From: Escherichia coli
GTDB taxonomy: Bacteria > Pseudomonadota > Gammaproteobacteria > Enterobacterales > Enterobacteriaceae
Length of the DNA: 64,000 nucleotides
Strand: one strand, 5' to 3'
Assembly: GCF_045037415.1 (NCBI RefSeq)
Contig: NZ_CP173438.1
Part shown: positions 45,213 through 46,251 of the stretch, piece after piece
Layout of the letters: each line of letters begins with the position of its first letter
Numbering within the stretch: the stretch's first letter is position 1
The notes under the pieces: generated by a model
Seen by the model: the letters and a program-made list of their open reading frames with translations, nothing else
Databases searched by the model: none
What the model was told of the DNA's origin: nothing
Program-made: the position numbers and the translations under genes

Positions 45213-45285
45213 AGAGAGAAAACCCCCGCACGTTGCAGGTATGCACCTGACAACATCACGGGGGCCATTCTTGCATCTAGACCAT
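45213..45285 (-). ncRNA. rdl: Putative Rdl antisense RNA, copy 1 (cis-antisense to the ldr 5' leader)
   Basis: Minus-strand imperfect hairpin CCCCCG...CGGGGG (plus-strand 45223..45265) followed by UUUUCUCUCU; position about 50-120 nt upstream of the ldr ATG. The 5' end is a guess. Confidence 0.4.
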
Positions 45286-45330
45286 TCAAGAATAGCCGCG
45301 AAACGTTGTCATTACAACACAGGCGGCTAT

Positions 45331-45438
45331 ATGACGCTCGCAGAGCTGGGCATGGCCTTCTGGCATGATTTAGCGGCTCCGGTCATTGCTGGCATTCTTG
45401 CCAGTATGATCGTGAACTGGCTGAACAAGCGGAAGTAA
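45331..45438 (+). CDS. ldr: Ldr-family type I toxin peptide, 35 aa (MTLAELGMAFWHDLAAPVIAGILASMIVNWLNKRK)
   Basis: Recognised Ldr peptide: hydrophobic core with WHDLAAP motif and basic KRK tail; C-terminal 35 codons of the 91-aa ORF in the track. Confidence 0.85.
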   Translation: MTLAELGMAFWHDLAAPVIAGILASMIVNWLNKRK

Positions 45439-45695
45439 CGTGTCATGCGGGCGTCAGGCTGCCGTAATGGCAATTTGCGCCCGGACCAGGCCGCAGAGGT
45501 GAAACTCTGCGGCCTTTTTCGTAAGAAAAATGCAACGGTTGCAAGCGGATAATATTCTGCGGAATGCGCAGCACAGAGTGAAGAAGTGATAGATTCCGGA
45601 ACAGAAAAACAGTCGTAGAATCAGCGTCAAGCCGGAAGGGTTCCGGTGAGGCGCAATGTTGCGGGGGCTTAATCCCTGGTGGCATTGGTTGCTGG

Positions 45696-45768
45696 AGAGA
45701 GAAAACCCCCGCACGTTGCAGGTATGCACCTGACAACATCACGGGGGCTAATCTTGAACCTGAACAAC
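45696..45768 (-). ncRNA. rdl: Putative Rdl antisense RNA, copy 2
   Basis: Equivalent position, 483 bp from copy 1; sequence differs from copy 1 in its 5' portion. Confidence 0.4.
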
Positions 45769-45813
45769 TCAAGAATAGCCGCGAAACGTTGTCATTACAA
45801 CACAGGCGGCTAT

Positions 45814-45921
45814 ATGACGCTCGCAGAGCTGGGCATGGCCTTCTGGCATGATTTAGCGGCTCCGGTCATTGCTGGCATTCTTGCCAGTATGATCGTGAGC
45901 TGGCTGAACAAGCGGAAGTAA
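45814..45921 (+). CDS. ldr: Ldr-family toxin peptide copy 2, 35 aa (N29S variant: ...MIVSWLNKRK)
   Basis: Same as copy 1 with one substitution. Confidence 0.85.
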   Translation: MTLAELGMAFWHDLAAPVIAGILASMIVSWLNKRK

Positions 45922-46178
45922 CGTGTCATGCGGGCGTCAGGCTGCCGTAATGGCAATTTGCGCCCGGACCAGGCCGCAGAGGTGAAACTCTGCGGCCTTT
46001 TTCGTAAGAAAAATGCAACGGTTGCAAGCGGATAATATTCTGCGGAATGCGCAGCACAGAGTGAAGAAGTGACGGATTCCGGAGCAGAAAAACAGTCGTA
46101 GAATCAGCGGCAAGCCGGAAAGGTTCCGGTGAGGCGCAATGTTGCGGGGGCTTTATCCCTGGTGGCATTGGTTGCTGG

Positions 46179-46251
46179 AGAGAGAAAACCCCCGTACGTT
46201 GCAGGTATGCACCTGACAACATCACGGGGGCTAATCTTGAACCTTAACAAC
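46179..46251 (-). ncRNA. rdl: Putative Rdl antisense RNA, copy 3
   Basis: Equivalent position, 966 bp from copy 1. Confidence 0.4.

Follow-up and report, generated by a model that had tools for sequence, protein, structure and literature searches.

Why enterobacteria keep several near-identical ldr/rdl units is the question raised by an array in a 64,000-nucleotide (nt) stretch of Escherichia coli DNA (contig NZ_CP173438.1), here called the window, and a short patch of variable sequence in this array bears on it. Positions 45122–46486 hold three LDR direct repeats with a period of 483 bp. Each unit would yield an ldr mRNA of ~374 nt for a 35-residue membrane toxin and, opposite the 5′ untranslated region (UTR) of that mRNA, the 66-nt antisense RNA Rdl. 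From the modelled structures and pairing energies of the two RNAs, a 20-nt patch that differs between the copies probably sets which antisense RNA recognises which toxin mRNA. The fuller proposal, that this patch is the recognition element of a three-copy ldr/rdl array and that nucleation within it decides which Rdl acts on which ldr, is judged probable by a narrow measure. As a short, multi-allelic patch at the only accessible predicted contact point, it makes cross-talk between Rdl RNAs directly testable. If the patch insulates the copies, ldr/rdl would be a third case, after Sib/Ibs and Zor/Orz, in which paralogues are discriminated by a few bases, and would offer a natural allelic series in which to follow how antisense specificity evolves while units undergo concerted evolution. 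Without insulation, the array amounts to redundant antitoxin dosage and the patch needs another explanation.

The repeats are the known ldr/rdl type I toxin–antitoxin family at the LDR-D locus, and not the LDR-A/B/C array of E. coli K-12, because the array lies between yhjV and bcsG, where the K-12 annotation has a single ldrD/rdlD. The initial annotation, which had recognised an LDR triplet, named the right family, and the locus is now placed at yhjV–bcsG. The K-12 systems ldrD/rdlD (LDR-D) and ldrA–C/rdlA–C were reportedly described by Kawano et al. in 2002; the window units are additional allelic members of a system already known. The sequence of the array is 100% identical to that of many ST131-type E. 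coli chromosomes, in which its open reading frames (ORFs) are annotated as Ldr-family type I toxins. Among the sampled E. coli, the yhjV–bcsG interval carries from one to four copies, three being found here and one in K-12. The three units are as follows, the first being closed by a terminator-like site at 45488–45515 plus a T run.

45122–45520, + strand: LDR unit 1, core through the ldr terminator; patch allele A, CATT plus CATCTAGACCATT.
45605–46003, + strand: LDR unit 2; patch allele B, TAAT plus AACCTGAACAACT; toxin with N29S.
46088–46486, + strand: LDR unit 3; patch allele C, TAAT plus AACCTTAACAACT.

The 401-nt core common to the three units has 18 variable columns, eight of which fall within 20 nt (45266, 45268, 45274, 45276, 45279, 45280, 45283 and 45285). 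Clustering at least as strong as this arose in 12 of 200,000 random placements (P ~6e-5), and variation between the paralogues is therefore concentrated in the predicted recognition region. Copies 1 and 2 differ at eight patch positions and at two of 353 flank positions. The strings quoted for this stretch in the initial annotation are exact, with copy 1 reading GGGGGCCATTCTTGCATCTAGACCATTCAAG at 45260–45290 and copies 2 and 3 reading GGGGGCTAATCTTGAACCT(G/T)AACAACTCAAG at 45743–45773 and 46226–46256. Its description of the units as near-identical except for a short stretch captures the clustering and slightly overstates it, as the ten other variable columns are scattered across the core outside the patch.

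45266–45285, unstranded: hypervariable patch, copy 1.
45749–45768, unstranded: hypervariable patch, copy 2, from alignment of the units.
46232–46251, unstranded: hypervariable patch, copy 3, from alignment of the units.

The patch in Rdl and in the ldr leader

The antisense RNA was located by three matches to Rfam family RF01813 (rdlD antitoxin; gathering score 50), each over the full length of the model.

45217–45282, − strand: rdl copy 1, RF01813, 82.9 bits; 5′ tail GUCUAGAUGCAAGAAUG.
45700–45765, − strand: rdl copy 2, RF01813, 88.3 bits; 5′ tail GUUCAGGUUCAAGAUUA.
46183–46248, − strand: rdl copy 3, RF01813, 86.3 bits; 5′ tail GUUAAGGUUCAAGAUUA; stem G>A at 46195.

The Rfam alignment places the 5′ end of Rdl copy 1 at 45282, in the same register as the annotated rdlA–D of K-12, and the patch differences therefore fall at Rdl nt 3, 4, 7, 9, 15 and 17, with two more at −1 and −3. 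The initial annotation had placed the divergent stretch in the 5′ region of Rdl and in the ldr leader; the RF01813 matches and the K-12 register agree on this, and the Rdl 5′ end lies within the stretch. Its further suggestion, that divergence is confined to the antisense pairing region, holds for the six differences inside Rdl and fails for the two at 45283 and 45285, which lie upstream of the Rdl 5′ end.

The 66-nt Rdl is predicted to begin with ~11 unpaired nt, the 5′ tail, followed by a long hairpin and then a U-tail. In the fold of copy 1, nt 1–11 are unpaired and the minimum free energy (MFE) is −32.3 kcal/mol (z −4.5); the corresponding z values are −6.3 for copy 2 and −5.5 for copy 3, in which the stem substitution at 46195 converts a U·G pair to U–A. 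With only 4 nt in the predicted fold, the apical loop would be ill suited as another point of nucleation.

Read as sense strand, in the fold of the predicted 374-nt mRNA, the patch occupies part of a hairpin, GGCUAAUCUUG–loop–CAAGAAUAGCC, namely its apical loop of 11–13 nt and the upper portion of its 5′ arm.

45146–45520, + strand: predicted ldr mRNA, copy 1, ~374 nt; start inferred from the −10 element TAAAAT at 45133–45138; 5′-terminal hairpin CCGGAAGGGUUCCGG.
45263–45297, + strand: predicted target hairpin in the ldr 5′ UTR, copy 1, GGCCAUUCUUG–loop–CAAGAAUAGCC, from full-mRNA folds.
45746–45780 and 46229–46263, + strand: predicted target hairpins, copies 2 and 3.

The loop bases complementary to the Rdl tail have a predicted unpaired probability of 0.73–0.89, and the recognition region is thus predicted to be single-stranded in both Rdl and the ldr mRNA. 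Folded in isolation, the hairpin has a z of −4.6 in copies 2 and 3 and −1.6 in copy 1. An alignment of 34 sequences was drawn from 30 related loci in six genera (Escherichia, Citrobacter, Klebsiella, Kluyvera, Pseudocitrobacter and Salmonella). Across this alignment 88% of the cells in the hairpin stem are paired and three pairs show compensatory changes (for example CUUG/CAAG to CUCG/CGAG to CUCA/UGAG), which gives the stem limited covariation support across genera. This covariation speaks for a structure of the toxin mRNA, because only the ldr mRNA holds both arms, Rdl starting inside the loop. The loop itself is hypervariable across all 34 sequences.

A patch that spans rdl −3 to +17 and the loop and upper stem of the ldr hairpin could instead set the rate of Rdl synthesis, its start site or the stability of the hairpin in each copy. 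Two of the eight differences, and loop positions 10–13 generally, are located upstream of where Rdl begins and can have no influence on pairing, and the CATT and TAAT arms shift an internal mismatch, with predicted hairpin energies of −10.6 versus −13.6 kcal/mol. Copy 1 also differs from the others in the ldr −10 element (column 45135), which reads TAAAAT there and TAGAAT in copies 2 and 3 (45616–45621 and 46099–46104) and in K-12 LDR-D; an ldr −10 element is kept in all K-12 and window units. Synthesis of the toxin mRNA, and with it toxin mRNA output, may therefore differ between copies through this inferred −10 variant. As an explanation of the patch, expression tuning is nonetheless improbable, since the variation falls mostly at Rdl nt 3–9, opposite the exposed loop, and the inferred rdl −10 and −35 elements are identical across the three copies. 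It is also compatible with recognition through the patch and could act alongside it. The ldr and rdl promoters were placed from transcript ends and conservation because a strict consensus sigma-70 promoter scan found no site within the array.

45289–45317, − strand: inferred rdl promoter, copy 1, with −10 TATTCT (45289–45294), a 17-nt spacer and −35 TTGTAA (45312–45317).

Patch alleles across strains and genera

The patch was compared among 28 arrays (26 from E. coli and two Escherichia reference arrays). Only nine discrete alleles occur in them, each conserved across unrelated strains, and ten further arrays gave no new allele. Of the three alleles in the window, C is one base from B. In a set of 35 unique D-type units, the patch has a nucleotide diversity of 0.22. 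The value is 0.049 for third codon positions, 0.044 for the 3′ UTR and 0.017 for the remainder of the 5′ UTR, so that the patch is ~4.5 times as diverse as third codon positions and ~5 times as diverse as the 3′ UTR. Over the 353 flank positions, the mean number of differences is 9.4 for units that share an array but not an allele, and it is again 9.4 for units that share an allele but come from different strains. Flank similarity does not follow the patch allele, and patch and flanks are unlinked.

Some of the loops extend beyond the genus. The loop of allele A, CATCTAGACCATT, is identical in Klebsiella grimontii, and that of allele B, AACCTGAACAACT, is identical in Citrobacter portucalensis, Citrobacter youngae and Citrobacter sp. 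R56; in each case the stems and flanks have diverged. Judged from the sequences, this sharing may reflect trans-species polymorphism, convergence or transfer. No description of a multi-allelic, flank-unlinked patch partly shared across genera was found in the searchable literature, the primary LDR papers excepted.

A neutral or mutational origin, in which the loop and tail are simply unconstrained, or in which quasi-palindrome template switching or the rdl start site creates a hotspot, has some features of the patch on its side and is very improbable. Variation falls on bases for which no partner is predicted within either RNA, and the patch lies inside an imperfect inverted repeat that A>T at 45268 makes more perfect. 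Template switching was considered as the origin of the patch and rejected, as it would account for a single substitution in an arm at best and for no change in the loop, where the arms cannot serve as template. A neutral account is further opposed by the excess of diversity over third codon positions and the 3′ UTR of the same units, by the small and stable set of alleles kept across unrelated strains, by the identical loops in other genera and by flanks that are homogenised where the patch is not. The population pattern argues against simple neutral drift or a diffuse hotspot and fits recognition alleles carried on recombination-homogenised units. A discrete allele set on homogenised units is the pattern that would be expected from selection for distinct recognition sequences.

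The same allele occurs twice in one of 16 distinct multi-copy arrays, compared with 5.6 expected (P = 0.005); this count is descriptive only, because the arrays have common ancestry and resemble products of deletion from one series, E-H-(A/F)-(G/D/I/C).

Unit order at yhjV–bcsG is itself variable (B-A-C versus A-B-C, A-E, and E-F-H versus E-H-F), and the resemblance to deletion derivatives of the E-H-(A/F)-(G/D/I/C) series extends to most arrays.

Predicted pairing, nucleation and specificity

The shared Rdl nt 18–66 give stable full-length cross-duplexes, and discrimination between copies could for this reason only be kinetic, at nucleation. The Rdl tail and the leader loop are the obvious nucleation site, because stable hairpins hold the common part closed and the apical loop of Rdl has 4 nt. 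In the hok/sok module carried by plasmid R1, reportedly the subject of Thisted et al. in 1994 and Franch et al. in 1999, the 5′ tail of Sok initiates pairing. On this model, the recognition element would be the free 5′ tail in Rdl and the apical loop and upper 5′ arm in the ldr leader, and Rdl nt 1–9 would nucleate on the exposed leader loop. Pairing would then zip along the 5′ arm, displacing the 3′ arm, and proceed into the long hairpins, after which the duplex would be cut by RNase III and/or leader-dependent translation would be blocked. Because nucleation would depend on the patch, the predicted targets of Rdl-1 include ldr-1 and exclude ldr-2 and ldr-3, and ldr-1 in turn is predicted to escape both Rdl-2 and Rdl-3. 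The anatomy, placement, clustering and population pattern of the patch and the in silico energies were computed here; the nucleation pathway and functional insulation are what we infer.

For the tail duplex (Rdl nt 1–17), the predicted energies are −24 to −28 kcal/mol for cognate pairs, −7 to −10 kcal/mol for copy 1 versus copies 2 and 3, and −20 kcal/mol for copy 2 versus copy 3. Corrected for accessibility, the tail interaction is predicted at −12 to −16 kcal/mol for cognate pairs, −0.1 to −2.3 kcal/mol for copy 1 versus copies 2 and 3, and −6 to −8 kcal/mol for copy 2 versus copy 3. Duplex stabilities for cognate and non-cognate pairs, which the initial annotation had asked to be compared, are thus unequal. 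Its suggestion of one-to-one specificity between Rdl and ldr is partly supported and too strong as put: on these modelled energies, copy 1 is predicted to be insulated from copies 2 and 3, and copies 2 and 3 probably cross-react.

Several observations weigh against recognition through the patch. The full-length cofold, at −73 to −80 kcal/mol for cognate pairs, stays very stable for copy 1 versus copies 2 and 3 (−48 to −58 kcal/mol) and for copy 2 versus copy 3 (−66 to −69 kcal/mol), and the 49 nt of Rdl nt 18–66 are common to the three copies with 0–1 mismatch. Many co-resident alleles are two tail bases apart, with cross energies of −16 to −23 kcal/mol, and the patch positions noted above, two of the eight differences and loop positions 10–13, lie outside Rdl. 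Allele uniqueness is not obligatory, because copies 2 and 3 are one tail base apart, the RdlB and RdlC tails of K-12 are identical and strain 300444 carries allele I twice. Arrays may seldom repeat an allele simply because they descend from a single ancestor that already held distinct paralogues. Of the two known chromosomal LDR loci, yhjV–bcsG and chaA–kdsA, the analysis of this strain covered the first. How Rdl represses ldr is described as unproven (PMC4147584).

The stable cross-duplexes would also suit a redundant pool, in which the patch sits in the Rdl tail without insulating and every Rdl represses every ldr through the 49 nt of shared complementarity. In the full-length cofold all pairs have strongly favourable energies (−48 to −80 kcal/mol), the copies agree throughout their stem-loops apart from one base in copy 3, and the tails are the same or nearly so in copies 2 and 3 and in K-12 B and C. 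Moreover, an ldrD/rdlD duplex cut by RNase III has been captured in vivo (PMC7373196), and the double-stranded RNA cluster at this locus corresponds to ~Rdl nt 8–41 (coordinate conversion made here), so that pairing reaches into the shared stem. Such a pool is nevertheless rather unlikely. In both RNAs, stable predicted hairpins close off the shared region (for Rdl, an MFE of ~−32 kcal/mol and a 4-nt loop), the patch being the only accessible nucleation site predicted, and the near-identical paralogues of Sib/Ibs and Orz/Zor discriminate by a few bases. Redundancy would also leave the 4–13-fold excess diversity of the patch, and its lack of linkage to the flanks, unexplained.

An extension of recognition through the patch is possible and is put forward tentatively. 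The Rdl tail and ldr loop might constitute a multi-allelic ‘address code’ of at least nine alleles under balancing or diversifying selection, some of them shared across genera, with the units as independently controlled toxin switches. Insulation would then come about through one or two substitutions at Rdl nt 3–5, and copies 2 and 3 would stand at the first step. No published experiment on Rdl cross-specificity was found in the searchable literature, the primary LDR papers excepted.

Paralogue discrimination by a few bases has been established in two type I families. Han et al. (2010; PMC2943612) showed experimentally that short variable domains, TRD1 and TRD2, decide cognate repression in Sib/Ibs, which like ldr/rdl is a multicopy type I toxin–antitoxin family with highly similar antisense RNAs. 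Sib spans the whole ibs ORF with two recognition domains, whereas Rdl pairs only with the 5′ UTR, and the D-locus alleles have one main variable region, the 5′ tail, the apical loop and bulge varying to a minor extent. Wen et al. (2014; PMC3919570) found that a single-stranded 3-nt region, V1, prevents cross-repression between zorO-orzO and zorP-orzP. These, too, are paralogous type I modules arranged in tandem, and their small RNAs pair through the 5′ end with the toxin 5′ UTR, as is predicted for Rdl. The Orz RNAs are divergently encoded and complementary to their targets over just 18–19 nt; Rdl is complementary to its own over the full 66 nt, so that its non-cognate pairs keep extensive pairing.

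Reviews liken the ldr/rdl mechanism to that of hok/sok (PMC4147584, PMC7472228). The two share a single-stranded antisense 5′ tail followed by a hairpin, a target that precedes the toxin start within a long 5′ UTR, and a leader ORF; the predicted tail-to-loop geometry also fits, and the full-length fold pairs the Shine–Dalgarno (SD) sequence with the 3′ UTR. Unlike hok/sok, to which it has no sequence homology, ldr/rdl has a leader ORF that ends ~80 nt before the ldr start and does not overlap it. A YUNR U-turn motif is centred in the target loop in ~6 of the 9 alleles; it was not used as evidence. The closest likeness is to K-12 ldrD/rdlD, which has the same yhjV–bcsG locus, 35-residue toxin, 66-nt Rdl architecture and start register, and the promoters, terminators and tandem-repeat habit are those of K-12 ldr/rdl. 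The tails differ, the window having GUCUAGAUG, GUUCAGGUU and GUUAAGGUU, none of them equal to that of K-12 RdlD (GUCUAGAGU...).

Toxin frames, leader and other features

The toxin ORFs encode hydrophobic 35-residue Ldr proteins with a conserved FWHDLAAP...W..(R/K)K pattern, and the Ldr ORF is 97% identical to K-12 LdrD. Overexpression of K-12 ldrD is toxic, killing or arresting cells, and co-expression of rdlD rescues them (PMC4147584). The N29S change reported for copy 2 in the initial annotation was confirmed as AAC>AGC, an A>G substitution at 45899.

45331–45438, + strand: ldr toxin ORF, copy 1, 35 residues, MTLAELGMAFWHDLAAPVIAGILASMIVNWLNKRK; RefSeq WP_001295224.1, Ldr family toxin, in the identical locus.
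45814–45921, + strand: ldr toxin ORF, copy 2, with N29S; WP_000170745.1.
46297–46404, + strand: ldr toxin ORF, copy 3; protein the same as in copy 1.

An in-frame extension of ldr to 91 residues from GTG 45163, present in copies 1 and 3, was rejected as non-coding because the patch-to-ATG distance in D-type units is 1 nt off that in A/B/C-type units, so that the frame is not conserved.

A second, short ORF lies in the leader.

45173–45250, + strand: leader ORF, copy 1, 25 residues, MLRGLYPWWHWLLERENPRTLQVCT; stops within the Rdl-complementary region.
45656–45733 and 46139–46216, + strand: leader ORF, copies 2 and 3.

A leader-ORF hypothesis, ldrX, has been described (PMC4147584), and the present ORF is a candidate ‘ldrX’. 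Its start, GGTGAGGCGCA-ATG, is universally conserved and the N-terminus MLRGL.P..H.LLERENPRTL is common to the six genera. The length ranges from 11 to 54 residues and the stop position is variable, falling inside the Rdl target in E. coli D-type units; the ORF is frameshifted in K-12 LDR-C, and column 45188 within it varies among the window copies. W>R changes in the ORF coincide with U>C changes that turn G·U into G–C pairs, and the conserved feature may therefore be RNA structure rather than the peptide.

In full-length folds, the ldr SD (GGCGGCU) pairs with nt 312–318 of the 3′ UTR, and in folds of the 5′ fragment it pairs with nt 147–154, AUAGCCGC, just 3′ of the target hairpin. The pairing of the SD with the 3′ UTR resembles the long-range 5′–3′ closure of hok mRNA. 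An anti-SD switch was considered, in which Rdl binding would free AUAGCCGC, which overlaps the 3′ arm of the hairpin, to sequester the ldr SD GCGGCUAU; it found no support. In a constrained fold with the Rdl target forced open, the SD partners were unchanged and accessibility was ~0.35, as in the free mRNA.

Between the patch and the ldr SD lies a small hairpin, GUUGUCAUUACAAC (45305–45318, + strand), which overlaps the inferred rdl −35 element. It has one compensatory pair across genera, U–A in 17 sequences and C–G in 16.

Elsewhere in the window, Rfam matches occur at 23391–23544 (+), 25270–25697 (−), 36894–36967 (+), 37064–37144 (−) and 39379–39421 (−). The families at these sites are the sok antitoxin (a second type I toxin–antitoxin locus), the cspA 5′ UTR thermoregulator, a tRNA, naRNA4 and the ES036 small RNA.

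LDR units were also encountered in other settings. The 195-kb plasmid p23AR0151A (NZ_CP195449.1) carries a normally chromosomal chaA-ldr-kdsA-sirB1 segment with one A/B/C-type LDR unit, the loop of which has 14 nt (AACCATCAACAATC). In E. coli Res13-Lact-PEA14-20, a single ldrD unit is followed directly downstream by an IS1, and the stretch lacks bcsG. A 503-bp, low-coverage contig labelled ‘Bacillus sp.’ encodes an E. coli-type LdrD and is most likely contamination.

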